32,000 bases of DNA from Candidatus Saccharimonadota bacterium (GCF_002214165.1 NZ_CP019964.1:870001-902000); one strand, 5' to 3'; shown: positions 342 to 28,766, numbered from the stretch's first letter. Numbers and translations are program-made. Notes: generated by a model from the sequence alone, not told the origin.

Positions 342-1781
342 ATGGACAATGACAATAATGAAAATAATAATTTGGACAAAGGCAAAGAAGACCAGTTGGC
401 CCAAGAAGGCGATTCTGAATTGAAAAATGATGATGATAAAAAATCGGATGCAATGGAGAACCGGCTTACCGCAGATGAAACCTTAATAGAGGACAAGATA
501 CTTGAGATGCTTATAGGTAAATTCTCTAATATAGACAAGCAGAGTGAAAAATTTGGGCTTGTTGAGGGGGCTGCAAAATCTGTAAAGCCGGACATATCGG
601 ATGAATTGATAAAGAAAATCTACGATGACATAACATATATAGGAAAGATAGAGGAGCTTGTTACAAACGATGATATAGAGGATATAGCAGTAAACAACAC
701 AATAGGGATCTTTGCTTATTTTTCAGGAGGTAGATCGGTGAACATGGATTACAAGTTCAAGACTAAAGTCGAACTTGCGAGATTTGTAAAGAAAATAAGG
801 CTTTATTCCACAAATGAAGAGGCGAATGGCAACATAATAGACGTTCATATGGAGAATGGCAGCAGAGCGAACATAATAAGCTCGCCTAGGGGATATGATA
901 TCACAATAAGAAATTTTAAAAAGCACACTCTGAGTGTGCTTGACCTAGTAAATTTTGGAGAGTTTGATTACAGCATTGCGGCTAGGTTATGGCTTTATAT
1001 GGACGGCTTAAAGGTAAAGCCTGCAAACATATTGATAGCAGGCATGCCTTCTTCAGGAAAGACGAGCTTGCTGAATTCGCTTTTCTCGTTTATAAGGCCT
1101 AATGAAAGGGTCATAACTATGGAGGAGACGTACGAGCTTGATACCTCCATGGCAAATAATGTCGTAAACCTTGAAACTAGCCAGGATATGCCAATGAGGG
1201 AGCTTGTGAAAAATTCTTTGAGGATGAGGCCAGACATGATGATAATAGGGGAGGTAAGAGGTCCGGAAGCAAATGACATGATTACCGCAATGAATGTAGG
1301 AAACATATGCCTCGGAACTATACATGCAACCTCATCCAGGGATATCATAGACAGGCTTGAGAATTCTCCGATGAATGTGCCGCAGGGTGTCATACCTACA
1401 ATAGATGCCCTTATGGTACTCTCACAGGTCTATATAAATGGCAAACCGATAAGAAAAATAATACAAATGTCGGAGATATCAGGCATAGAGACAAAGATAC
1501 TGCTTTCAGACCTTTATAAATATGATTATAAGTCTCATACGTCATCTCCTATATTGCCGAGTGTAACATACAGGGATAGGCTTGCAAAAGCGGTAGGTGT
1601 ACCTCCTCCCGATATATTGGCAGAGGAAAATGTAAGAATGCAGATATTGATGCAGCTTAACAGGTTGGGTATAAGGGACATAAAGAGCATAAGCCAAGTA
1701 GTGCAAGATTACTATGATAATCCCGATGCTTTGCTTGCAAAGATAGGCTTGAACGGGCTTCACCCTATAATAAGGGTATGA
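342..1781 (+). CDS. Type II/IV secretion-family ATPase (archaeal FlaI/PilB/VirB11-like, T2SSE) with acidic low-complexity N-terminus
   Basis: 479-aa ORF. Walker A GMPSSGKTSLLNSL, Asp box ITMEETYEL, Walker B MRPDMMIIGEVRGPEA, His box GTIHATS. The N-terminal ~45 aa are D/E/N/K-rich. Confidence 0.85.
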   Translation: MDNDNNENNNLDKGKEDQLAQEGDSELKNDDDKKSDAMENRLTADETLIEDKILEMLIGKFSNIDKQSEKFGLVEGAAKSVKPDISDELIKKIYDDITYIGKIEELVTNDDIEDIAVNNTIGIFAYFSGGRSVNMDYKFKTKVELARFVKKIRLYSTNEEANGNIIDVHMENGSRANIISSPRGYDITIRNFKKHTLSVLDLVNFGEFDYSIAARLWLYMDGLKVKPANILIAGMPSSGKTSLLNSLFSFIRPNERVITMEETYELDTSMANNVVNLETSQDMPMRELVKNSLRMRPDMMIIGEVRGPEANDMITAMNVGNICLGTIHATSSRDIIDRLENSPMNVPQGVIPTIDALMVLSQVYINGKPIRKIIQMSEISGIETKILLSDLYKYDYKSHTSSPILPSVTYRDRLAKAVGVPPPDILAEENVRMQILMQLNRLGIRDIKSISQVVQDYYDNPDALLAKIGLNGLHPIIRV

Positions 1782-3370: not shown

Positions 3371-3478
3371 GGATCTGTGGCGCAACTTGGATAGCGCGCA
3401 TGGCTTCGGACCATGTGGTTGCGGGTTCAAAATACTAAGAGGGAGAATACCTCAGGCATGGAACTCCCGCCAGATCCG
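3371..3478 (+). tRNA. tRNA-Arg (anticodon UCG) with a 33-nt intron in the T loop (position 59/60)
   Basis: Hand-folded cloverleaf. Acceptor GGATCTG/CAGATCC plus discriminator G. D arm GCGC-AACTTGGATA-GCGC. Anticodon arm CATGG-CTTCGGA-CCATG. Variable loop TGGTT. T stem GCGGG(3421-3425)/CCCGC(3466-3470), separated by 40 nt instead of 7. BHB: central helix TTCA(3426-3429):TGGA(3459-3462), bulges AAA(3430-3432) and ACT(3463-3465). Removing 3432-3464 gives T loop TTCAAAT. CC but not CCA is encoded after the discriminator. Confidence 0.85.
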
Positions 3479-3480
3479 CC

Positions 3481-4014
3481 TTAATTACATACAAAGTTTG
3501 CTCCCTCACTGATTCCATAATCTGGTTGTGTAAATGTATATGGATTGCTAGAACTAGAATAACTGCCTGTCCACCCAGAAAAGTGCCAGGCGTACAAATC
3601 CAAAAATCCGCAGCGCCCCCCAGGAGTTGCTGATATTTTTACATTAGAACCATAGTTTTCTCCTATTGTGCCTGAAGGGCTCACGCTGCCAGTTCCCTTA
3701 TTTACATATATATAATCGGATTCAGGGTTGGGGTTAAAGTGTGCAGTTTCGCGTATGTTGCCGTTAATTGTTGGATATGCAGGATTATTGTAACCTGAGT
3801 AGCAGCCGCTGCCGTTTATATTGCTGCAGGACCAGCCGGCAAAATAGTAGCCATAACCGGCGGATTCGGATATCCCTGGGCTACTGCCATCTTGGTAATC
3901 GTTGGTGCCTGAAGGGCTCACGCTGCCTGATCCACTGGCACTTACAGTCAATGGTGCCACAGTATTAAATTCCACGCCTGCATTACCACAGCTACCGCCT
4001 CCTGCCCCATCCCC
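3481..4014 (-). pseudogene. Orphan duplicated 3' end of the giant surface-protein gene (last 178 codons plus native TAA stop)
   Basis: Encodes GDGAGGGSCGNAGVEF...GANFVCN*, identical to residues upstream of the frameshifted tail of 3992..9325. It is out of frame with the main ORF because the unit is 535 bp. The only in-frame Met (4053, MESVREQTLYVIF) lies in an alternative frame of copy B with no obvious Shine-Dalgarno motif. Confidence 0.6.
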
Positions 4015-4553
4015 AAATATTACATACAAAGTTTGCTCCCTCACTGATTCCATAATCTGGTTGTGTAAATGTATATGGATTGCTAGAACTAGAATAACTG
4101 CCTGTCCACCCAGAAAAGTGCCAGGCGTACAAATCCAAAAATCCGCAGCGCCCCCCAGGAGTTGCTGATATTTTTACATTAGAACCATAGTTTTCTCCTA
4201 TTGTGCCTGAAGGGCTCACGCTGCCAGTTCCCTTATTTACATATATATAATCGGATTCAGGGTTGGGGTTAAAGTGTGCAGTTTCGCGTATGTTGCCGTT
4301 AATTGTTGGATATGCAGGATTATTGTAACCTGAGTAGCAGCCGCTGCCGTTTATATTGCTGCAGGACCAGCCGGCAAAATAGTAGCCATAACCGGCGGAT
4401 TCGGATATCCCTGGGCTACTGCCATCTTGGTAATCGTTGGTGCCTGAAGGGCTCACGCTGCCTGATCCACTGGCACTTACAGTCAATGGTGCCACAGTAT
4501 TAAATTCCACGCCTGCATTACCACAGCTACCGCCTCCTGCCCCATCCCCAAAT
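3484..4553. repeat. Exact tandem direct duplication, 2 x 535 bp (copy A 3484-4018, copy B 4019-4553)
   Basis: Base-by-base reading of the two copies found no mismatch. Flanks differ at 3483 vs 4018 and at 4019 vs 4554. Two pairs of ORF-track peptides are identical (3768..3968 vs 4303..4503, and the shared 178 aa GDGAGGG...GANFVCN). 535 is not a multiple of 3. Confidence 0.9.
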
Positions 4554-7500
4554 TCTACTTCGTAATTCTGTTCTGGCAGATTATCTATACCTATGAAAGT
4601 ATAACACCTACCATTAGTTCCTTGCCCAAAATAGGTATCACCATTCGAAAGCCCAACAAGTGTTCCGTGTGCAGCCCCTGAATTTCCTCCTGCTACCCAC
4701 TCATTGAGATTACCACCTGTCCAATAGCATTCTCCTGTATAGGATGTTTGATAAGCACCAGTGCTGTAAGAGTAGCCATTGCAATCAGGTATTGACTCGT
4801 AATCCGCGGTTTCGGTTATTGGGCCGTCCATATATATTGTCGTTGAAGTAGCGGATCCGCTGTAGCTCCCTGTACCGCTTCCAGACCAACCCGTAAACTC
4901 ATATCCAAGGCCAGTCGATTCCGATATTGAAACTCCCTGCCCCGTACTGTAATCACAGTAAGTCCCAGCGCCAGGAGATATGCTCCCTGCAGAACTTGAA
5001 GGGGAAATTGCCATTGTAAGGCAGACATCGTAAAGGGCAGTCTCTGTAACACTGCCGGTTATTGTTATAGTTGCTGATGAATCCGTGCCCCCGTAGCAAT
5101 CATTGCCTGTGCAAGTCCAGCTTGTGAATGAGTAACCGGAACTTGGAGATTCTGAAAATGAAACAGTGCTTCCATAACTATACGTGTATGTGCCACTGCC
5201 ACCACTTGGATTGGTGATACTTCCTCCTGCAGACGGATTTGTGCTTATAGTGAAAGATTCTGGTATAAGCTTGAAGTTTGCATCTTCTGTCATTGGATTA
5301 TCCATCGTAAGTGTGTAAGAGGAATCCGTGCCGTCATAGCAGTTTGTTCCGCTGCAGGTCCAGCCTGTAAACTCATAACCAGTCGACGGGCTAGCAGATA
5401 TTCCCACATTAGTTCCATACGGCACACATTCGCTACCTGGTGATACACTGCCACTTCCGCTTGATACTCCCATTGTAAGGCAGACATCAAAGTTTGCCTG
5501 CTCTGTCATTGGATTATCCATCGTAAGTGTGTAAGAGGAATCCGTGCCCCCGTAGCAGTTTGTTCCGCTGCAGGTCCAGCCTGTAAACTCATAACCTGAA
5601 TTTGTGGATTCTGAGATAGTGACCTGTGATCCATACAATTCTTGGTATGATCCGGAGCTTGGGGATATGCTTCCTGCATTAGAGTCTGAAATAGACATTG
5701 TCAAACCTATCCCATAATTAGCAGTCTCAGTTATTGGATTACCCATAGTTACTGTTATGGATGATGAATCTGCACTAGAACATCCATCCCCATTGCAGGT
5801 CCAGCCTGTGAATGTATATCCAGGGTTTGATGACTCTGTGATAGTGACTTGTGAATCATAAGCGTAATAACCGCTGTTAGGTGATACGGATCCTCCGGAA
5901 GACGGGTATGTATTTGTGGTTAAGTATACACCAAAGTTTGCCTGCTCTGTAACCTTGCTTGTCATGGTTATGGTTGGAGAGGGATCGGTGCCTGTATAAC
6001 TTGCAGAACCTGTCCCTGTCCAGCTAGTAAACTCGTATCCAGAATTGCTTGATTCTGACAAAGGCACCTGGGTACCGTAATTATAAGTATAGGTTCCTGT
6101 GCTTGGGCCTGTGCTTCCTCCAACGGATGGGTATGATTCAATAGTAAGGGTTTCTGGTATAAGCTTGAAGTTTGCAGTTTCTGTCGTCGGTCCCCCTATT
6201 GTAAATGAAGGAGATGTGCTTGTGCCAGAATAGCAGTTTATGCCGCTGCAGGTCCAATTCACAAATTCATATCCAACAGTATTATTGTCTTCGGATAACG
6301 AAATTGAATCACCGCTTGCCACTGAATAAGCTCCTGAAGATGTAGTAGAGCCGCCTGGTGATGCAGTTGCGGTTCCATCTCCTGAAGGGTTTACATTTAA
6401 TGTCAATATTACATTATAGTTTGCAACTTCGGTTACATTTGAATCTATTGTTACACTAGCTGATGTGCTTGCACCTGTATAACTTCCACTTCCGGTGCCT
6501 GTCCATTCCGTGAATGAATACCCCGAATTTTCAACTTCTGATATCGGGATTGAATCGCCATCGGGCTCATAGTAAGTTGCTATTGTAGAGGTAGATCCAC
6601 CCGGAGATGCAGTTGCGGTTCCTGAATTCTCTGAATGTACTTTTAGGGTAAACGGCGCTGTATTGTTGAGCTTTGCCGTGGCATTTCCCCCTGAACCTCC
6701 ACCACTCCCATCCGTAAGGCTTAGATAGTAGTTTTGCAAAGGAAGTGAATTCATTGTATTATACTGCAGATAGGTACTTGTTCCACTCTCTTCTAAGTAA
6801 TTCGCGCCGTTGCTCCCGTTCACGTAAACATGTGAATAATCTGAATCTCCTCCTCCAGTATATAGAGATAGATCGCCTCCCGTCCAATAGCATTCTCCAT
6901 GAACAGTTGTTGGATAGTCTGATGTTGACAATATATAGTTGTTGCAGGATTGCAACGTGTAAAAGTTTGCAGTTTCTATTATAGGGGATTCAATAATAAC
7001 GGAAGTCTTGTTTGTCTCTCCTGTATAACTTCCAGTGCCGACACCTGCCCAGTCTGAAAATCCATATTTGGTATAAGCATTGGCATTAATGTTTACCGTA
7101 GTGCCATAAGGATATGCATTGGACTCGTTATTGGTTGTTAAGTTGCCGGCATCAGAAGCAGTCCCATCTCCTACAGGGTTTACATATACTTTCAAGTAAA
7201 TATAATAGAGGGCAGTTTCTGTGAATGGGACCGATGGCACTGTCATGGTGAATGAAGCGCTGGTGCTCTTCTCGTATCCGGTCCAGTTTATAAACTCGTA
7301 TCCAGAGTTTGGAGATTCGGACAAGGTTATTGATGATGTAGGGTCATACCAGCCGCTACCTGGAAGCAATGATAGTGCACCACCTTCAGGGGATGATAAT
7401 TCGTTCAAGTATACATCGTAGTTTGCCTGCTCGGTGAATGGGACCGATGGCACTGTCATGGTGAATGATGAAGAGGAATTTTTCTCGTAGCCGGTCCAGT

Positions 7501-9325
7501 TCTCGAACTTATAGCCCGTGTTGTTGACTTCTGACAATGTGATTGAAGAATTTGGAAGATACCAACCACTGCCTGGTGAGAGCGAATAATCCGCAGTTGA
7601 AGGGGAAGCAAGTTCTGTTAGATAGACATCGTAGTTTGCCGTTTCGTTGAACCCTTTACCTGGAACAACCAATTGGAATGAAGCGCTGGTGCTCTTCTCG
7701 TATCCGGTCCAGTTTATAAACTCGTATCCAGTGTTGTTTGTCTCAGATATGGTAATGGTATCGCCATCGGTATATGTACAGCCGCTACCTGGAAGCAACG
7801 ATTTCGCACCTCCAGTTGGATTTGAAACCTCTATCAGACAGCTGTAGTAATTTGCCTGCTCGGTGAATGGGACCGATGGCACTGTCATGGTGAATGAAGC
7901 GCTGGTGCTCTTCTCGTATCCGGTCCAGTTTATAAACTGGAATCCTGAATTTGTTTGCTCTGAGATATTTATTGATGATGTAGGGTCATACCAGCCGCTG
8001 CCTTGAAGCAATGTACCTGCCTTGACACCTGAAGGAGGATATGAGAGTTCGTTCAAGTATACGTCGTAGTTTGCCTGCTCGGTGAATGGCTGGCCGGGAA
8101 CCTGCATTTGCAATTTTGATAACGTGCTATCCTCGTAGCCAGTCCAGTTCTCGAACTTATAGCCTGTGTTGTTGACTTCTGACAATGTTATGTAAGAACC
8201 TGGAACATACCAGCCGCTGCCGGGTGAGAGCGAAGAATCCGCAGTTGAAGGGGAAGCAAGTTCTGTTAGATAGACATCGTAGTTTGCCTGCTCATCTATA
8301 TCTGTATACATCTGCACGGTGCCTGAAGTGCTTGTTCCTGTATAGTTTATTGTACCGTGCCCTGTCCAGTTCTCGAACTTATAACCCGTATTGTTGACTT
8401 CTGATATTGTCAACGAAGATTTGTAATTCTCCAGATCATGGCCCGCCCCTGGCGTTAATGTTTTTGCTGCAGTCGATGGAAAGGTAGACATATTCAAATA
8501 CCTTTCATCTTTAGGTGGTGGTGGCGGTATATTAGAAGGCAACGTATAATAGGCATATATTGTACCACTATTTTCTATTGTCAAATTGGTTGATTGGTTA
8601 TAAGGGTTCCCTATTTTTAACGAGGAAGGGGAGCTTTTCCATCCAGGATTGCTTGAATAGAATACGTATCCGCTTGGAGGAGATGCGAAGAGTGAATATT
8701 CGCCTTTTATGAAAAATTGTGTTGTGCCACTCGCATACGGGACACCGTTCACACTTATACTTCCTATATTTGGATAGGTCTGAAAGTTCAGCTCTAAGAA
8801 GGATATTCCAGTTGGCGCAACAATCTGCGTCGAGTAACCTGTTGTTTTATACACTGTATCTCCACACTTGCTGGAGCTTGAACATATTTTGTATTCAAAA
8901 TTAAAAGGTGTTGTTGTGCTTGTTCCTACTGCTGCCTTTACTGGACCTGTTATATTAACCCTGCACATTACTTCCCCACCACTGGTGACGTATTCTGGAG
9001 TGCAATTGCCTAGGTAATTGTTTGTGCCAGTAGACCTGCCTATATTTGTTGTTGTCAAATTGAATCCGTTAGATGATATATTTATAGACCTCCCAAGATC
9101 GTTCTTGAAGATTATTGTATATTCCATTGGTCCTGTGGAGTTATAGACAAGCAATGTGTCGACACAAGGTAACAATGGGTCAATATTGCATTCCGATTGA
9201 AGATAATCTGATGGGGGCTTGAACCCTATTAAAATCAGTATAATCGCTATGACAATCGCTATTATCAAGATGGCCCACGAATAAGTTGTAATCATCTCTA
9301 TAGCGGATTGCTCCTTCATATGCAT
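3992..9325 (-). CDS. Giant surface protein with class III (type IV prepilin-like) signal peptide and about 17 InlB-B-repeat-like (Listeria-Bacteroides repeat) modules; 3' end altered by the tandem duplication
   Basis: 1777-codon ORF. The N-terminus MHMKEQSAIEMITTYSWAILIIAIVIAIILILIG shows a short charged leader, Q then E four residues later, and a long hydrophobic helix, as in archaeal pilin-type signals. A Cys-containing ~270-aa domain and a PPPPP linker follow. Then come repeated ~70-75-aa units with core GY.F..W[TSA][GC] ... TE.ANF/Y. The ORF ends FVCN plus an 8-aa frameshift tail IWGWGRRR*. Confidence 0.85.
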   Translation of the reverse strand: MHMKEQSAIEMITTYSWAILIIAIVIAIILILIGFKPPSDYLQSECNIDPLLPCVDTLLVYNSTGPMEYTIIFKNDLGRSINISSNGFNLTTTNIGRSTGTNNYLGNCTPEYVTSGGEVMCRVNITGPVKAAVGTSTTTPFNFEYKICSSSSKCGDTVYKTTGYSTQIVAPTGISFLELNFQTYPNIGSISVNGVPYASGTTQFFIKGEYSLFASPPSGYVFYSSNPGWKSSPSSLKIGNPYNQSTNLTIENSGTIYAYYTLPSNIPPPPPKDERYLNMSTFPSTAAKTLTPGAGHDLENYKSSLTISEVNNTGYKFENWTGHGTINYTGTSTSGTVQMYTDIDEQANYDVYLTELASPSTADSSLSPGSGWYVPGSYITLSEVNNTGYKFENWTGYEDSTLSKLQMQVPGQPFTEQANYDVYLNELSYPPSGVKAGTLLQGSGWYDPTSSINISEQTNSGFQFINWTGYEKSTSASFTMTVPSVPFTEQANYYSCLIEVSNPTGGAKSLLPGSGCTYTDGDTITISETNNTGYEFINWTGYEKSTSASFQLVVPGKGFNETANYDVYLTELASPSTADYSLSPGSGWYLPNSSITLSEVNNTGYKFENWTGYEKNSSSSFTMTVPSVPFTEQANYDVYLNELSSPEGGALSLLPGSGWYDPTSSITLSESPNSGYEFINWTGYEKSTSASFTMTVPSVPFTETALYYIYLKVYVNPVGDGTASDAGNLTTNNESNAYPYGTTVNINANAYTKYGFSDWAGVGTGSYTGETNKTSVIIESPIIETANFYTLQSCNNYILSTSDYPTTVHGECYWTGGDLSLYTGGGDSDYSHVYVNGSNGANYLEESGTSTYLQYNTMNSLPLQNYYLSLTDGSGGGSGGNATAKLNNTAPFTLKVHSENSGTATASPGGSTSTIATYYEPDGDSIPISEVENSGYSFTEWTGTGSGSYTGASTSASVTIDSNVTEVANYNVILTLNVNPSGDGTATASPGGSTTSSGAYSVASGDSISLSEDNNTVGYEFVNWTCSGINCYSGTSTSPSFTIGGPTTETANFKLIPETLTIESYPSVGGSTGPSTGTYTYNYGTQVPLSESSNSGYEFTSWTGTGSASYTGTDPSPTITMTSKVTEQANFGVYLTTNTYPSSGGSVSPNSGYYAYDSQVTITESSNPGYTFTGWTCNGDGCSSADSSSITVTMGNPITETANYGIGLTMSISDSNAGSISPSSGSYQELYGSQVTISESTNSGYEFTGWTCSGTNCYGGTDSSYTLTMDNPMTEQANFDVCLTMGVSSGSGSVSPGSECVPYGTNVGISASPSTGYEFTGWTCSGTNCYDGTDSSYTLTMDNPMTEDANFKLIPESFTISTNPSAGGSITNPSGGSGTYTYSYGSTVSFSESPSSGYSFTSWTCTGNDCYGGTDSSATITITGSVTETALYDVCLTMAISPSSSAGSISPGAGTYCDYSTGQGVSISESTGLGYEFTGWSGSGTGSYSGSATSTTIYMDGPITETADYESIPDCNGYSYSTGAYQTSYTGECYWTGGNLNEWVAGGNSGAAHGTLVGLSNGDTYFGQGTNGRCYTFIGIDNLPEQNYEVEFGDGAGGGSCGNAGVEFNTVAPLTVSASGSGSVSPSGTNDYQDGSSPGISESAGYGYYFAGWSCSNINGSGCYSGYNNPAYPTINGNIRETAHFNPNPESDYIYVNKGTGSVSPSGTIGENYGSNVKISATPGGRCGFLDLYAWHFSGWTGSYSSSSNPYTFTQPDYGISEGANFVCNIWGWGRRR
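4019..8494 (-). repeat. Intragenic coding repeat array (about 17 modules of 210-230 bp), partly near-identical at DNA level
   Basis: A 76-nt identical block occurs at 7221-7296 and 7863-7938. A ~100-nt block at 5287-5380 recurs at 5506-5599 (offset 219 bp, 2-3 mismatches). The peptide TMTVPSVPFTEQANYDVYLNELS recurs. Confidence 0.85.
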
Positions 9326-13462: not shown

Positions 13463-15220
13463 TCAAACAACGTAGGGTACTGCTATTTTTGCTGTGCCTG
13501 AAATAGTGTAGGGCTTTCCGTTTTCCGTGTAATTTAGAGTCAGGTTGTAATTATCGTATGCAACATCAAGCGGGACCAATACGCTGCTGCATTCCACGCT
13601 TATGCTGCCTTCTTTGGTTGCATTTATTGTTGTATCCTCTTTATAGTGCTTCTCCAGGCCAGGCATAAAGCACGCAGCACTTGTTATTTTCACAGGGGAA
13701 TCCCCATTGTTCTTGATTGTGAAGTTTGCCTTGCTTGTTGATTGATTGTATGAATCAAACCTGCAGCTTAAAGTGCTATTGGATAACTGGCAGCTGCTTT
13801 GGGCTGATGGTTTCCATGGATAAACTGATTGGTTTACCTTAAGTGCTGCTATCAGGTGGGCAGCATTTGGCACTATGCTGCTCGAATAATTGGTATATGT
13901 AAATGAATACATTGAAAGCATATACCTATTGCCTACTTCATTGGACTCTGCCATGCTGTAATTGGCAAATGCAGATGCTTGGTATACTGGGCTTATCAAG
14001 TAAGAGCACAGTTCTAGGTTCTCTGAGGAATTGCTTGATATCTGGCCCTTGCATGTCATATTTGAATCCTTTAAAGAAACGTTGTATTTGGAGATATTTG
14101 AGGCAAAATTCCCATAAGGGTTTTCGAACAGATTCATCTGGGATATTGAATTTGAATTTATAGATGTTGAAAAACCGGTGTAAGTCGAATTTGTGTAAAG
14201 GAAACCGCTTGAGTAATTCATGAGTGCCTTGCTGCTGTTCAAGGATGCTTCCAACACGCTTGCTTCTTTAGGGGTGTAATTGCTTGATATAATATTCCTG
14301 CACGTGTAGTTACCGGATGCGTTGTATACAGATAATACCTTTACCCAACCATTGTTCTGTGAGGTACATATGCTTGTGAAGTTGCTGTACTTGAAGTAAA
14401 CTCCATCGGTACCAGATAGGTTAAATGCCGAATATGAAAGGGTGTTTTTGCGCAATAGTGTATTTAAGTATTGGGCAGTTATATTTCCATTCATCCACAA
14501 GCTTGATATCCTTGCTCCGCTGCTGTAATTTGCGTATACGCCATTCATTATGTGTACAAGAAGCGCTAGGTCTGTTATTGAATTGCCGACCGCAGGATAA
14601 GCGGGCCCAAACAAGTTCTTGAAGTAAGATATGTTATAATTTAAGGCCTCAATTGAGGAGAATGCTATGCCTTTTGGATAAAGTGTAAACTCCTTTGTAG
14701 ATGTTATATTCAGATTTGGTATTGATACGTATAGGTCTGGCTTTTCTGGGACTGCGACAGGAACCGCAAATGATTGATGTGACAGATCCCTGTTCTTTAA
14801 GTTTAGTAGGTTGGCAGGATCCGCTACAGCTTCGAATGTGTAATTGCCGCTATTGTTGAATGTGTAGCTTATTGAAAGGTTTACTTCGGATTTCGGCGGC
14901 AGGGTTATTACATATGAATGGAGTTTATTTCCATTGACGTATACCAGCATTGGAAGCTTGCTTAGCTTGCTTGTGCCTATGTTGATTACAGTGAGCTTGG
15001 CGCTTAGGGTATTGAATGGATACATGGTTGTATTGGCATGATAATTGACTGGTGAGAATTCAACTTTAACCGAATACGATCCTGCTTGTGTAAATGAATA
15101 TGATACATAGATTATTGCAACCGCTATTATGATAGCAATTGCATAAAGCCATATCGCAATTGAGCTTTTTTGACCTTCGTTGGTTTTTTTATCTTTATTT
15201 TTAGATTTTGAATCTGACAA
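13463..15220 (-). CDS. N-terminally membrane-anchored, N-glycosylation-sequon-rich surface protein with CARDB-like beta-sandwich region
   Basis: 585-aa ORF. Lys-rich leader then TM helix IAIWLYAIAIIIAVAIIYV. I counted about 29 N-x-S/T sequons by hand. The segment LTVINIGTSKLSKLPMLVYVNGNKLHSYVITLPPKSEVNLSISYTFNNSGNYTFEAVADP resembles CARDB domains. Confidence 0.7.
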   Translation of the reverse strand: MSDSKSKNKDKKTNEGQKSSIAIWLYAIAIIIAVAIIYVSYSFTQAGSYSVKVEFSPVNYHANTTMYPFNTLSAKLTVINIGTSKLSKLPMLVYVNGNKLHSYVITLPPKSEVNLSISYTFNNSGNYTFEAVADPANLLNLKNRDLSHQSFAVPVAVPEKPDLYVSIPNLNITSTKEFTLYPKGIAFSSIEALNYNISYFKNLFGPAYPAVGNSITDLALLVHIMNGVYANYSSGARISSLWMNGNITAQYLNTLLRKNTLSYSAFNLSGTDGVYFKYSNFTSICTSQNNGWVKVLSVYNASGNYTCRNIISSNYTPKEASVLEASLNSSKALMNYSSGFLYTNSTYTGFSTSINSNSISQMNLFENPYGNFASNISKYNVSLKDSNMTCKGQISSNSSENLELCSYLISPVYQASAFANYSMAESNEVGNRYMLSMYSFTYTNYSSSIVPNAAHLIAALKVNQSVYPWKPSAQSSCQLSNSTLSCRFDSYNQSTSKANFTIKNNGDSPVKITSAACFMPGLEKHYKEDTTINATKEGSISVECSSVLVPLDVAYDNYNLTLNYTENGKPYTISGTAKIAVPYVV

Positions 15221-23929: not shown

Positions 23930-25399
23930 TCAGCTGGCGGTTACATTTGCTGATGCAAATACGCCGTTCTCTCCCATTACTACTACTTTGTACTGCTCTC
24001 CCTCTATCGGCATTATTATAGGGTTGTGGAATGGCAGGTGTATTAAAGTCCCATTAACCCTCGATCTCATTGTAAAGTTGCCAGAGACGTTGAAACCCTT
24101 TCCTGATCCGTTAGCCGATGCCGAACCTGCTCCCCTTATGATTGGTGAAGGTATGCCTCTTATGGGTGATAAAGAGCCATAATAAGTGAATGTTTCATTG
24201 CTGTGGGGGCTTATCACATATCCTTTTTGGGCATATGGGAACTGGTAGTTGAAAGGCAGCTCAAGGCTACCATTTGAAAGCACAAGGAAGTTCAATACAT
24301 TATGGTACTGGTATCTGAACATCTCCGCGTTTGCAACTTCTGCTGATATGCTGAGATTTGACATGTTGTAGCGCTTAAGGTTGGAATAGACAGAAACATT
24401 TATGCTGCTAGCTATATTTTTAGGCAAAAAGTTGCTTAAACCCTGAATTATCTGGTTGTTTCTTGTCATATTTTGAGGTATTGTGTGGTTCGTGCTGCTG
24501 TTCGCCCCTAGCACGAATATAGGCTTTACTTTGTAAGAGGCATTAAATGGCATCATTGGTGAAATTCTTCCATAATTGATGCCCTCAAGCTGCATATTTC
24601 CATACAGCATCACATTGCGTATAATGATTGGGTAATTGTTGTTGTTCCTTACGGTTATTCTCAAGTTTGTCTCATTGCTGCTGTTGTTTATGGCAAGGTA
24701 TGTGCTTGTTATAGTTACATTTGGCCGGTAATTCCCGAATTCACTGCGTATGCTGCTATTTATTTGGATGTGCATATGTATCCTGGCAGTCGTTGAATTT
24801 GCATAGTGTTTGGTTAATCCAAAAGCTTGCCCATAAGGCTCAAGCCCGAACTTTGTCTGGTTGTTTGTTGCATTGTAAAATTCCATTACCCCTGGGTTTA
24901 GCCTAATCATCAATCCGGTGTCATTTTTGATAAAGGAAAGTACAGCTATTTGCGATGAACCATTTATTATGTTTAAAGGGTAGGTATTGTTGTCAATTAC
25001 AATATACCCCGACTTTATATTTATGGCGACACTTCTTATCAAGGTGTTGCTGGGTATTTTTACGACCGCAATGACATCGGAGTAGTTGCTTAGGTTCATC
25101 AGGTTCACTGATCCATAAGCAGAGAAGTTCTCCTTGATGCCATTTTCTGTGAGAACTGAGAAATTGGTATAATTAAGGACCAATGACGAAGTGCCGGGAG
25201 GTGCTGAAAGAGGGTCGGTCAGCTCGACTGCTATAGTCTTGTTGGCTGGCGCAAATGTGGTCACTGTGGTGCTTGGCACTGTGGTCACTTTGGTTGGTAT
25301 AGTTACTATAAAGTAAATACCTATCCCTATTATGATAATGCCTATTATTAAGTATAAGACTTTTTTGGGATCAAAACTCCTACTTTCTTCGTAGTCCAT
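23930..25399 (-). CDS. N-terminally membrane-anchored, N-glycosylation-sequon-rich surface protein (unknown function)
   Basis: 489-aa ORF. TM helix VLYLIIGIIIIGIGIYFIV. I counted about 31 N-x-S/T sequons by hand. It lies immediately downstream of aglB on the same strand. Confidence 0.7.
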   Translation of the reverse strand: MDYEESRSFDPKKVLYLIIGIIIIGIGIYFIVTIPTKVTTVPSTTVTTFAPANKTIAVELTDPLSAPPGTSSLVLNYTNFSVLTENGIKENFSAYGSVNLMNLSNYSDVIAVVKIPSNTLIRSVAINIKSGYIVIDNNTYPLNIINGSSQIAVLSFIKNDTGLMIRLNPGVMEFYNATNNQTKFGLEPYGQAFGLTKHYANSTTARIHMHIQINSSIRSEFGNYRPNVTITSTYLAINNSSNETNLRITVRNNNNYPIIIRNVMLYGNMQLEGINYGRISPMMPFNASYKVKPIFVLGANSSTNHTIPQNMTRNNQIIQGLSNFLPKNIASSINVSVYSNLKRYNMSNLSISAEVANAEMFRYQYHNVLNFLVLSNGSLELPFNYQFPYAQKGYVISPHSNETFTYYGSLSPIRGIPSPIIRGAGSASANGSGKGFNVSGNFTMRSRVNGTLIHLPFHNPIIMPIEGEQYKVVVMGENGVFASANVTAS

Positions 25400-25472: not shown

Positions 25473-28400
25473 TCAAGGCATTGTGTAGTTGTTATGTACG
25501 TATGATGGTTTAGGGACTTGAGGAGGTAGCTTGCCCGTGAAATTGTTAAGCTCAAACGCCTTAAGTGGATCTGTATAGTTTACCAAGTTTGTGCCTTTCG
25601 AGTCATTTATGTAAGAATATACCTGGTGGAATCCAGGAAGCTCATTGAGGAAGAAGCCTTTGTAGAAATTCGATGTGTAGAATTGGGTAGGCGCATCTGT
25701 GATTGTGCCGTTTGGACCGTTTGGAGTATAAATCGCCATATATTCCTCAAATGGGGTTTCCACTCCGCTTATGTTTAGGTACTGTATACCTATATTGTCC
25801 TGCAGGTTTATGTATGAATTTGTAGGGGTATCGTTGCTTGTGTATAACTGTACCGCACCGTTTGAATTAGGTACTTCGCTCATGCATTCATACTGGCTAT
25901 TTATTGATTGATTTGTTATAGTATATATCCTTGCGAACTGGTTGCTGCTTGTAGAGAATGAGCAGTAATCGGATAGTGAAGGGCCTGATGAGTAGTAAGG
26001 GTCAAGGACCACATAAGGTACAAGCACATACTCTGGATCGTGCTCTATTTCACATGGCGATGTGCCTAGTACATATGGTTGGCCTGTTCCTGCAGCTGCT
26101 GCCTTCGCATACGCCTCAGAAGTCCCATTAACGTATACGCACCCTAAGAAGTCCAAAGCGCCCCATTTGTCTATTAACCCTTGATCAAAGACGGCGTATG
26201 CTGTCTGGTTCGTGTTCATCATGTTTGCCATTTCACTTGTGTTGAATCCGTACTTAGGCCCAAGCACGTAGCTTGCGGCTACAGCCTCGTCTTCAGTTGC
26301 ATTGGCATTATCTCCCCTGATTACTGCATTTGAATGCCCAAAGAAGTTTATCCAGTCACCATAATCCCACCATGAAAGTACACGAGGGGCGTTTGGGCCC
26401 ACATTTGCGGACAGCCACTTTCCAAACGAAATCCAGTAGGTTGGGACTGTATTGCAGAAGAAATCCGCACCCATTTCATTGTTGCATGCTGCTGTTGTAT
26501 TTCCCGCTGAATAATACGCTTGCGAGACTATTGCGGATGTGAAAGATGAAGATTCGCCTTGCAATAGTGAGCCTTTGAGCAGGCTCCCAGCTATAACTAT
26601 TATAAGGAACAGCCCAAGCAAAGAGTACATTGCCTTGTTCTTGTACGAGTATTTGAATATGAGAATCAAAAGCGCGATTATCGCAAGTATTGTTGATACA
26701 AAGAACAGCCCTATTATAAGAACGGAATATACGTAGGTCTTGTTTTCCTTGAATATGTCGGATAGGTTTGATATATTGATCTCCTGCTTTAGCTTGAACT
26801 TTGAAGCTATCAGGTAAAGTATTTCGCCAAGCATTATGCAGAACAGAAGTATGAACGCGATTCCAAAATGGGGAAGGTATTCGACTTCAATGAAACCTAC
26901 GTACATCAAAGGCAAAGCTACTGCCAGATAGAATACTCCGGTTTCACTCCTCCTGTAGGCTATGCTTACAAGTATAAGCAATACGGATATTGCAGATACA
27001 AGCCATACCATTATAGGGACTCCGAATATGGACGATCCCACAAGACCGAACCCAGCAGCGCCGAAATTGTACAGCAGACCTGAAGGCTCATATTCTGCCA
27101 CTGTCATGAATAAGGCAGACGATGGGCTAGTGAACTTCTTAGAAATGTCAAGTACTTTTATTATAGGCTTTCCCAAAGGCGTGAATGCCATCGCTATAAG
27201 AGCTATCACGGCAATCGCAATTATCCACTCAATATAGGCGGTCCTGTCTATTTTCTTGAAAAGTATGTTGTACTTATTCAGCAGCTTTGGTCCGTAGTCA
27301 AGCACCGCAACCAGCAGAAGCGCCAATGCCGGGCCTGAAACCGTTAAGGGTATGCCTAGTATCTTTGGCACATTAACGCTGAATGTAGCATGGTAAGGAG
27401 TGTATGCTGCAAGGAACACCGCTATCGTTATAAGCACTATTATATTCATCTTGTAGAACCCTTTTGGGATACCTTTTCTTGCAGCAAGGTCAATTATCCC
27501 TTCAAATATAATGTATACTGCCAAAACTCCCATATCAACGGTATAGTAGTGCGCGCCTAGGAACGTGAATGCAAATGCCACCCCTGCGAATATTGCGAGC
27601 CTCACGCTATTCTTGTCCTTGACCGCCAATAGATATGCCATGAAGAAGAAGAACAATGAGAATATGCCCCATGGCTCTGTAAGCTGTTGCCCTGCAGTAA
27701 ACTCTGTCACAAGAACGGGCATTGTGGCTGCAAGCGATGCACCTATAAGGGCTATGTACTTGCCGTACTCCTTGTACAGCATCATAAATATTACAAAGAC
27801 TAGAATCGCACCGACTATCGGAGGATAAAAGCTGCTTGTATACGACATCAGAGCATTGTTTAGAACAGTGTAATGAGGCCCGAGGTAATTTGCCAAGCTG
27901 TACCAGTACGCTTCAAGATAAGGGAGCAAAGGCTGCGCCCTTGTTATGACCCCCTTGGATATTGTAGGCCAAGCAAAATATGTGTACTGGGGCTGATACC
28001 CATAAGTCAACAGCGCTTCCGTGCCTATCATATAGTAGTATGGATCAAACTGGAAGAATACCGGGGCTATTACCTCGCTCTCCATCCCGATCACAAATGA
28101 CGCGATTATCAATAGTATAAGAACCTCGTATACCCAATGAGTCTTTATCTTGTCTGCAAGATTTGTCTGGTTGGATCCGTTGTTTGCCTGCTTTGGCGCG
28201 GACAGTTTTTCAAGAAGGGACATTTCTTCCTGCTTGTGGTCCAGCATCATTGTAGAGTTGCGTTCCCTGAACTCCTTCTCGAAATTTATTTTTTCTTCGC
28301 CTTCGAGCTTCTCCAATGAGTCTTCATAATGGCGCAGAGATTCGGATTCGTCGGTCTTGTGGTTCTCCACCATCTTCTTCCCTTCATCGTATGAATCAAG

Positions 28401-28766
28401 CTTTGACCTTATATCCTCGATGGATAATTGATAAAGGGATTTGTCGCTAACCTTTGGCTTTGTGAATTCACGAAGCTTTGAAAAAGAGAATACGCCTTGC
28501 CAGAAGCACAGGATTATACCTATTATTGTAAGCACTAGCGCATTTGCTTCAAACAGCCCGAGCGAGAATGTAAAGAAATGCATATAAGGTATCAGATAAG
28601 CTTCTACCCATGTCATAGTTGGAGTAGCCACCAGACCAAATACAAAACCTATTATAGATATATCTACAAGGTTGAGCTTGGTCTTTCGCAAGAGTGCAAG
28701 CGCCAAGAGCTCTCCTGGTACAAATAGAGTTATAAACGCAACAATTATAGCTAAAACCGCACTCAT
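25473..28766 (-). CDS. aglB: Archaeal oligosaccharyltransferase AglB (STT3 family) with ~200-aa N-terminal extension
   Basis: 1097-aa ORF. Catalytic WWDYG motif (LSWWDYGDWINF, about 26357-26377). First-loop FDPYYYM after the TM helix VLILLIIASFVIG. More than 13 predicted TM helices and a sequon-rich C-terminal soluble domain. AGGTG lies upstream of the ATG. Confidence 0.9.
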   Translation of the reverse strand: MSAVLAIIVAFITLFVPGELLALALLRKTKLNLVDISIIGFVFGLVATPTMTWVEAYLIPYMHFFTFSLGLFEANALVLTIIGIILCFWQGVFSFSKLREFTKPKVSDKSLYQLSIEDIRSKLDSYDEGKKMVENHKTDESESLRHYEDSLEKLEGEEKINFEKEFRERNSTMMLDHKQEEMSLLEKLSAPKQANNGSNQTNLADKIKTHWVYEVLILLIIASFVIGMESEVIAPVFFQFDPYYYMIGTEALLTYGYQPQYTYFAWPTISKGVITRAQPLLPYLEAYWYSLANYLGPHYTVLNNALMSYTSSFYPPIVGAILVFVIFMMLYKEYGKYIALIGASLAATMPVLVTEFTAGQQLTEPWGIFSLFFFFMAYLLAVKDKNSVRLAIFAGVAFAFTFLGAHYYTVDMGVLAVYIIFEGIIDLAARKGIPKGFYKMNIIVLITIAVFLAAYTPYHATFSVNVPKILGIPLTVSGPALALLLVAVLDYGPKLLNKYNILFKKIDRTAYIEWIIAIAVIALIAMAFTPLGKPIIKVLDISKKFTSPSSALFMTVAEYEPSGLLYNFGAAGFGLVGSSIFGVPIMVWLVSAISVLLILVSIAYRRSETGVFYLAVALPLMYVGFIEVEYLPHFGIAFILLFCIMLGEILYLIASKFKLKQEINISNLSDIFKENKTYVYSVLIIGLFFVSTILAIIALLILIFKYSYKNKAMYSLLGLFLIIVIAGSLLKGSLLQGESSSFTSAIVSQAYYSAGNTTAACNNEMGADFFCNTVPTYWISFGKWLSANVGPNAPRVLSWWDYGDWINFFGHSNAVIRGDNANATEDEAVAASYVLGPKYGFNTSEMANMMNTNQTAYAVFDQGLIDKWGALDFLGCVYVNGTSEAYAKAAAAGTGQPYVLGTSPCEIEHDPEYVLVPYVVLDPYYSSGPSLSDYCSFSTSSNQFARIYTITNQSINSQYECMSEVPNSNGAVQLYTSNDTPTNSYINLQDNIGIQYLNISGVETPFEEYMAIYTPNGPNGTITDAPTQFYTSNFYKGFFLNELPGFHQVYSYINDSKGTNLVNYTDPLKAFELNNFTGKLPPQVPKPSYVHNNYTMP

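Follow-up and report, generated by a model that had tools for sequence, protein, structure and literature searches.

In a 32,000-nucleotide stretch of DNA (GCF_002214165.1, NZ_CP019964.1:870001-902000; the whole stretch is called the window below), one open reading frame (ORF) of 1777 codons encodes what we read, at a probability of about 0.55, as a giant modular type-IV-pilin-like adhesin of the episymbiotic archaeon Candidatus Mancarchaeum acidiphilum Mia14. The reading is carried by the architecture of the protein, the membership of its repeats in a known family, the homology of its N-terminus to a pilin-like family, its positional orthology to a short pilin-like gene of related archaea, and the linkage of that family to pilus genes. 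A first-pass annotation, made by a model from the nucleotide sequence, had placed the ORF at 3992-9325, and it is present there as described, on the minus strand, its product beginning MHMKEQSAIEMITTYSWAILIIAIVIAIILILIG. The same annotation had proposed a 'pilus-tip or cell-anchored adhesin', which is still the right level of claim.

The ORF is an exact match to ASI14218.1 / WP_124216925.1, a protein of Ca. Mancarchaeum acidiphilum Mia14 annotated as 'cell surface protein' or 'InlB B-repeat-containing protein', and the product of the adjacent ATPase gene is an exact match to ASI14213.1 of the same organism. The window is part of the Mia14 reference genome (Micrarchaeota; an episymbiont of Cuniculiplasma), and its other genes are archaeal housekeeping genes, among them those for TBP, RadA, FtsZ, gyrase, an AglB-like oligosaccharyltransferase and ribosomal proteins. 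Mia14 belongs to the ARMAN-2-like Micrarchaeota and grows in co-culture with Cuniculiplasma divulgatum (PMC5498576), which, together with the exact protein matches, bears out the episymbiotic life on which a role in host attachment had initially been made to depend. Judging from the accession order, with the tRNA gene at 3371-3478 counted, the giant ORF is almost certainly MIA14_0946 and the ATPase gene MIA14_0940. MIA14_0946 appears in the literature as a surface protein with a possible link to a type IV pili-like system (PMC5498576, Suppl. Table 2) and is among the four largest Mia14 surface proteins (PMC5498576); the idea of a pilus-associated surface protein was published earlier, at annotation level, in that work. 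Golyshina et al. 2017 (PMC5498576) gave neither domain anatomy nor a signal analysis for MIA14_0946, and neither the orthology to a ~260-aa pilin-like gene nor the duplication described below is mentioned there. New here are the modular-pilin reading, the positional orthology with the ~260-aa gene, the conserved Glu at -1 of the putative cleavage site, the duplication in the reference, and the observation that nearly half of a large Micrarchaeota pilin-like family is without a small -1 residue.

Mia14 with Cuniculiplasma is among the few co-cultures that allow tests of how DPANN archaea recognize and attach to their hosts. The giant protein, already flagged in the literature, is one of the better candidates for a host-attachment molecule in a cultivable DPANN system, and its anatomy would combine a pilin-like carrier module common across Micrarchaeota with a lineage-specific adhesive stalk. 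Saccharibacteria, which are bacterial episymbionts, bind their hosts by type IV pili (PMC12206443), a precedent that makes an archaeal parallel informative.

The N-terminal module and its family

The protein starts with a short putative leader that ends in Lys at -2 and Glu at -1, followed by Gln at +1 (Gln6), Glu at +5 (Glu10) and 24 uninterrupted hydrophobic residues with a mean Kyte-Doolittle hydropathy of 2.63. The combination of Q+1 and E+5 is the signature of archaeal pilins processed by EppA, with sites such as RA|QI and KG|QV (PMC4371748). Cleavage before Gln6 would put Glu at +5 and an aromatic residue at +6, the Flp/EppA-type spacing; a cut after Ser7 was considered and dropped, since it is the cut before Gln that reproduces this spacing. 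An alternative start at Met11, behind an AAGGAG in codons 4-5, was likewise dropped, as the spacer would be 15 nt and QSAIE is conserved in all homologues.

The first ~260 residues place the protein in a large Micrarchaeota family in which the signal [KR]-x-Q-S-A-I-E is conserved and members usually stand alone, at ~255 aa. With residues 1-290 as the query, a word-based search returned short homologues that likewise stand alone, 205-355 aa long and 36-44% identical, among them one from a Micrarchaeaceae metagenome-assembled genome (MAG), and a profile search of 1.84 billion representatives gave 7293 matches at E<1e-3 and 249 at E<1e-30, totals that include proteins matched via InlB-B repeats alone. 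In many of the matches listed, the domain sits at the extreme N-terminus of proteins that range from ~250 to 1767 aa. In a 10-sequence alignment, Q6, A8, E10, Y15 and A18 are invariant, and so are six cysteines (46, 54, 108, 121, 148 and 154). For this part of the protein, AlphaFold2 predicts a protruding helix (residues 8-34), an Ig-like sandwich (44-168) and a second beta domain (176-261) at a pLDDT of 80; the model of residues 1-172 alone reaches 85.

The residue at -1 is the variable part of this otherwise strict signal. We picked 82 members by the motif Q[ST]A[ILVMF]E, which fixes Q+1 and E+5 by construction; K or R stands at -2 in 72 of them, and -1 is Q in 22, A in 20, S in 14, G in 10, L in 8, T and M in 2 each, and E, P, I and V in one member each. 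Gly, Ala or Ser at -1 is thus found in 44 members (54%), and members with a canonical site (KG|Q, KA|Q or RG|Q) share homology along the entire domain with members whose -1 is non-canonical. Given this variability, FlaFind and other rule-based predictors would seem to miss some of the pilin-like proteins of Micrarchaeota. A correlation of the -1 residue with protein length was also considered and dropped, the 60% of short and 45% of long members with G, A or S showing no clear difference.

The hydrophobic N-terminal segment with its short charged n-region is also what an ordinary Sec-secreted protein would have, with a class I signal peptide cut by signal peptidase I, but we regard this as very improbable. 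The hydrophobic stretch is 24-29 residues long and preceded by an acidic residue, against an expected core of about 7-15; by inspection, there is no A-x-A-type site downstream (LILIGFKPPSDY); AlphaFold2 places residues 8-34 in a single continuous helix; and the motif is conserved as it is in pilins.

Pilus genes and positional orthology

The type IV pilus assembly ATPase of the window is encoded 2.2 kb from the giant ORF, in conserved synteny. Its matches among Protein Data Bank (PDB) sequences are CpaF (2e-45), Archaeoglobus fulgidus GspE (2e-41) and FlaI (3e-35), and FlaI is its best NCBIfam model. With one genome taken per species, we retrieved 60 family loci, nearly all from Micrarchaeota. 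A 1776-aa orthologue in one relative (L009) has the identical N-terminus MHMKEQSAIEM and keeps the gene order of the window; in another (L010) the orthologue is split into 497 and 587 aa, begins MQFKEQSAMEM and keeps the window order as far as the contig reaches. Elsewhere, a 260-aa member (L024; KQ|Q) lies in the order UbiA-like, family gene, RNase HII, PRC, winged helix-turn-helix (wHTH), ATPase, and a 689-aa member (L025; RQ|Q) lies in the same order. The run from the family gene through RNase HII, PRC and wHTH to the ATPase is common to the window, L009, L024 and L025, and because of this shared order the giant gene is the positional orthologue of a ~260-aa pilin-like gene.

The family is linked to pilus genes in other lineages as well. 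Two loci from Micrarchaeota MAGs are compact pilus operons. In L017 (5797-12925, +), four class-III-like genes lie in tandem, their -1 residues being Q, S, M and A; 19 nt on and on the same strand, the orthologous ATPase gene follows. In L028 (1424-15488), a 384-aa member shares its locus with a T2SSE ATPase, two T2SSF (TadC-like) proteins and four further class-III-like genes; the five class-III-like genes span 187-960 aa, and the large ones have canonical KA|Q or KG| sites. An A24 peptidase gene lies two genes from a 256-aa homologue in L001-L004; this peptidase had no match among PDB sequences. A prepilin peptidase and a platform protein, for which the first-pass annotation had proposed a search, are not encoded in the window itself; near relatives of the giant gene, the peptidase lies beside the L001 homologue and the two T2SSF proteins in L028. 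For Mia14, two pilus loci have been described together with a single prepilin peptidase, MIA14_0570 (PMC5498576), which lies outside the window. Furthermore, the L014 member has an Ig_3 match and a weak DUF2341 match in its C-terminal part, and L025 a weak DUF2341 match; other lineages would thus attach different C-terminal modules to the pilin-like module, which fits the modular-pilin concept (PMC8179133).

A number of observations weigh against a pilin, beginning with the residue before the putative cut. Characterized prepilin peptidases need Gly, or in archaea Ala or Ser, at -1. The giant protein has Glu there, rightly called unusual in the first pass, and this Glu is kept across three orthologues, including those of L009 and L010, so it is not an error. 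A FlaFind-like regular expression rejects the giant protein and 60 of 83 family members, the giant protein because its -1 is Glu. The last leader residue has been called 'absolutely critical' for prepilin peptidases (PMC4471445). No Pfam family matches the first 60 or the first 290 residues at E<=10, and no NCBIfam class III model does so at E<=0.1, short class III profile models being insensitive. Foldseek searches with the 290-aa and 172-aa models retrieve generic Ig-like sandwiches at TM-scores of 0.3-0.45, FlaF (4p94) ranking 22nd and a Pyrobaculum arsenaticum pilin (6w8u) 31st among the matches; the predicted fold is compatible with a pilin and neither proves nor disproves one. The 32-kb window holds neither a TadC gene nor a peptidase gene, and a pilus-machinery gene lies within 10 kb in only 9 of the 60 family loci, an enrichment that is modest and phylogenetically non-independent. 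Most family members are stand-alone genes, and stand-alone pilin genes are known for haloarchaeal PilA (PMC4858521).

Several of these observations would suit an uncleaved, N-terminally anchored fibrillar adhesin, an alternative that we hold to be possible though rather doubtful. Here the class-III-like segment would be a signal-anchor of type II topology that never becomes part of a pilus, and the 17-18 InlB-B repeats would form a stalk that lets the distal Cys-rich domains project through the S-layer. Fibrillar adhesins typically have long repeat stalks; Glu at -1 in three orthologues and a bulky or charged -1 in 46% of the family speak against cleavage of the classical kind by a prepilin peptidase; and an uncleaved anchor would account for a window without TadC or peptidase genes and for family loci that mostly lack nearby pilus machinery. 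However, it leaves unexplained the strict K/R at -2, Q+1, S/T+2, A+3 and E+5, as well as an acidic residue kept inside the helix across hundreds of divergent members, and it sits poorly with the ATPase operon of L017 and the full pilus locus of L028. The tandem paralogues of L017, moreover, differ from one another at -1 (Q, S, M and A), which suggests that -1 is simply unconstrained in that lineage.

We therefore call the giant protein pilin-like, which is less than a proven type IV pilin. It has most features of class III proteins (a short leader with K at -2, Gln at +1, Glu at +5, the hydrophobic helix and linkage to pilus genes), and it lacks the defining small -1 residue and a curated profile match. 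To that extent, the interpretation offered in the first pass is supported.

'Pili-like connections' have been seen between ARMAN cells and wall-less Thermoplasmatales. We offer, as a speculation that we hold to be unlikely, that the Micrarchaeota peptidase ignores -1 and reads the basic residue at -2 together with Gln at +1 and Glu at +5, that the 1769-aa protein is the tip subunit of these ARMAN-Thermoplasmatales connections, and that its lineage-specific Cys domains and InlB-B array set the host. A peptidase blind to -1 would, if real, explain the Q, L, M, E, I, V and P found there across the family.

The repeat array and its likeness to known systems

In bacteria, InlB B-type repeats form tandem arrays in cell-surface proteins. 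The giant protein carries, behind the PPPPP linker that had already been noticed, exactly 17 module ends marked by the motif E.A[NLDH][YF], the number counted in the first pass, and the 17 modules align across about 71-83 aa at pairwise identities of 20-80%. The profile check proposed with that count gave Flg_new_2 (PF18998, the divergent InlB B-repeat) in 16 stretches, at E=1.7e-98 and with 323.1 bits where the cut-off is 23.6; TIGR02543 reaches 52.6 bits (cut-off 20.95), and Flg_new (PF09479) likewise matches. By these profiles the 17 modules are bona fide InlB B-repeat members, far beyond chance. Modules 2 and 5, as well as 3 and 6, are 80% identical, a likeness visible at the DNA level too, which points to a recent block duplication.

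The two halves of the array differ in composition. Of the 33 N-x-S/T sequons, 32 lie within residues 1-1023 and one in the last ~750 residues, and most of the 32 cysteines lie in the distal half, apparently paired throughout, either in WTC.G..C loops or as C-x19-21-C at module starts. The WTC.G..C loops that had been assigned to C-terminal modules occur in modules 9, 11, 12, 13 and 14; module 16 has a WSC variant. The first six modules, which had been described as free of Cys, are not, as module 4 has C496 and C516.

The array is also broken by two ~105-aa domains that are not InlB modules (insert domains A and B; residues 789-896 and 1510-1612), which were absent from the first-pass description. 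Their consensus reads C..CYWTGG ... LP.QNY ... GGGxCGNA, and the same domain forms the C-terminus of a 474-aa N-terminally anchored surface protein encoded just beyond the window (L005:6354-7778, -). Among the sequences covered by a local profile search, it is restricted to the Mancarchaeum lineage, that is, to the giant protein, its orthologues and the 474-aa protein. Neither insert domain has a meaningful match in Pfam, a three-copy alignment had no match in a large database at E<=1e-3, and insert domain B had only chance-level matches to PDB sequences, among which the whole giant protein had none.

A further degenerate copy had been proposed at residues 176-262. In the giant protein itself, this region is detected by neither Pfam nor the 17-module profile; the aligned region of the homologues P0001, P0003 and P0006, however, passes the Flg_new_2 threshold, and AlphaFold2 gives it as a separate beta domain.

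A product rich in Ser, Thr, Gly and Asn with 33 N-glycosylation sequons could also be a structural S-layer or envelope protein of Mia14, and it has indeed been grouped with 'surface layer proteins' among the four largest Mia14 surface proteins (PMC5498576). We think this improbable. The S-layer protein of Micrarchaeota that has experimental support, SLP_Mh, is of a different family, ~101 kDa in size and carrying TIGR01564/TIGR01567 (bioRxiv 10.1101/2021.04.28.441871), domains that are missing from the NCBIfam matches of the giant protein; the S-layer protein annotation in Mia14 belongs to MIA14_0342 (PMC5498576); and relatives have a 260-aa protein at the same position.

The closest parallel to a pilin-like adhesin of this build is found in modular type IV pilins, surveyed in more than 1,200 bacterial proteins (Raynaud et al. 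2021, PMC8179133). As in Streptococcus sanguinis PilB and PilC (PMC8179133), a pilin module is joined by a short linker to domains that are typical of adhesins and not confined to pili; one pilin module occurs with varying effector modules across relatives, and a location at the tip is expected from bulk (PMC8179133). In the giant protein, residues 1-262, the PPPPP linker and the InlB-B array show this arrangement, on the condition that the first of them is a pilin. It differs in being archaeal, the survey covering bacteria only (PMC8179133), and in size, with ~1769 aa against 860 aa and 12 repeats in the most extreme modular pilin cited there, from a CPR bacterium (PMC8179133). Its head is predicted to be an Ig-like sandwich, whereas the bacterial one is an alpha-beta roll, and its -1 residue is Glu instead of Gly.

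With the EppA-type pilins EpdA-E of Methanococcus maripaludis (PMC4371748), the giant protein shares a short basic leader, Gln at +1, Glu at +5 and a long hydrophobic helix, and probably an N-glycosylated beta-rich head (PMC4371748), the glycosylation here being read from sequons. The Methanococcus pilins have Gly or Ala at -1 (PMC4371748), in contrast to Glu in the giant protein and to a family with G, A or S in only 54%, and the giant protein is more than 10 times larger. The bindosome of Sulfolobus offers another precedent, in that class III signals there occur on large, functional surface proteins which a pilus-like assembly system displays with no long filament visible (PMC4471445); its components, unlike the giant protein, are solute-binding proteins with canonical PibD sites, a dedicated Bas operon and no repeat stalk (PMC4471445). 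Finally, the 17 modules tie the protein to InlB B-repeat or Listeria-Bacteroides repeat proteins (PF18998, PF09479, TIGR02543), from which it differs by a pilin-like N-terminal anchor in place of LPXTG, GW or a Sec signal and by an array broken by two lineage-specific Cys domains.

On the pilin-like reading, the MHMKE leader, the Q-S-A-I-E motif and the 24-residue helix would direct N-in membrane insertion through SRP/Sec, and the single FlaK/EppA-like prepilin peptidase may trim the 5-residue leader before Gln6. The pilin module would comprise signal, helix, the Ig-like head (35-172) with three probable disulfides, and one InlB-B domain. It would be docked by the Tad/FlaI-type ATPase encoded 2.2 kb away and a TadC platform encoded elsewhere, at the tip of a type IV pilus or on a short pilus-like stub; no other place would seem to accommodate the ~1500-residue extension. 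This extension would be a beads-on-a-string stalk made up of 17 clear InlB-B repeats, a degenerate one and the two lineage-specific Cys domains of ~105 aa, presumably glycosylated in its membrane-proximal half and disulfide-stapled in its distal half, that would reach beyond the cell's own S-layer and bind the wall-less Cuniculiplasma host.

Feature coordinates, the 535-bp duplication and neighboring genes

Table 1. Features of the giant ORF and its surroundings, in window coordinates
Feature	Position	Strand	Basis
Whole ORF as in the window, 1777 aa	3992..9325	-	ASI14218.1 / WP_124216925.1
Putative leader MHMKE, residues 1-5, Lys at -2, Glu at -1	9311..9325	-	sequence, family alignment, orthologues L009/L010
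Class-III-like hydrophobic helix, residues 6-34	9224..9310	-	invariant residues, AlphaFold2, hydropathy
Predicted Ig-like beta-sandwich head, residues 35-172, six invariant Cys	8810..9223	-	AlphaFold2, invariant columns
Putative degenerate 18th InlB-B-like domain, residues 176-262	8540..8800	-	AlphaFold2 beta domain; PF18998 in homologues
PPPPP linker, residues 268-272	8510..8524	-	sequence
InlB-B (Flg_new_2) modules 1-7, residues 279-788, rich in N-glycosylation sequons	6962..8491	-	profile, motif, module alignment
Insert domain A, residues 789-896 (C..CYWTGG ... GGGxGGNA)	6638..6961	-	local profile search
InlB-B modules 8-15, residues 897-1509; WTC.G..C loop or other paired Cys in most	4799..6637	-	profile, motif
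Insert domain B, residues 1510-1612, four Cys, GGGSCGNA end	4490..4798	-	local profile search
InlB-B modules 16-17, residues 1613-1766, followed by the natural C-terminus ...GANFVCN ending at 4019	4028..4489	-	motif, orthologue comparison, module alignment
Duplication copy 1 (end of insert B and modules 16-17)	4019..4553		sequence self-comparison
Duplication copy 2, absent from L005, L007 and L008	3484..4018		comparison with other assemblies
CpaF/FlaI-type type IV pilus assembly ATPase (ASI14213.1; probably MIA14_0940)	342..1781	+	Pfam T2SSE 7e-30

The 3' end of the giant gene lies in an exact head-to-tail tandem duplication of 535 bp, its two copies (Table 1) being 100% identical and meeting at a junction that reads ...GTATGTAAT|ATTTGGGGATG... 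As the period of 535 bp is not a multiple of three, the frame shifts at the junction, and the last 8 codons of the ORF (IWGWGRRR, 3992-4018) are a frameshifted read into the second copy. Copy 2 also yields an orphan ORF of 190 aa (3481-4053, -), annotated as ASI14217.1 / WP_088820512.1. A MAG contig (L005) and two Logan contigs (L007 and L008), with flanks 99.9-100% identical to the window, have a single copy, and the orthologue of a related species stops a few residues past ...GANF; for these two reasons we take the natural product to be ~1769 aa long, ending ...GANFVCN. Counted from the second ATG, the product has 1767 aa (P0011). The duplication could be an assembly artefact or a culture variant, and the Mia14 reference genome appears to carry, in it, a change that truncates and splits the annotation of the giant gene.

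Convergent with the duplicated 3' copy of the giant gene, and abutting its TAA, is a gene for tRNA-Arg(UCG) (3371-3478, +) with a T-loop intron of ~31-33 nt. ARAGORN reports no tRNA in the window and calls tRNA-Arg(tcg) once the intron is removed in silico; Rfam covers 3371-3429 only, where it gives 29.4 bits (threshold 29).

The window holds two further genes for N-terminally anchored surface proteins. A 585-aa CARDB-domain surface protein (13463-15220, -), rich in sequons, has an N-terminal hydrophobic anchor preceded by ...NEGQKSS, where its L009 orthologue has ...PKGIGN; possibly, this N-terminus is a class-III-like signal in degenerate form. The second protein, of 489 aa and likewise anchored at its N-terminus (23930-25399, -), is very rich in N-x-S/T sequons and has no family match, and adjoining it is the gene of a 1097-aa multi-pass membrane protein (25473-28766, -) with weak matches to the STT3/AglB core, probably an oligosaccharyltransferase. 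The 489-aa protein and the 1097-aa AglB-like protein are both relevant to the glycosylation of surface proteins.

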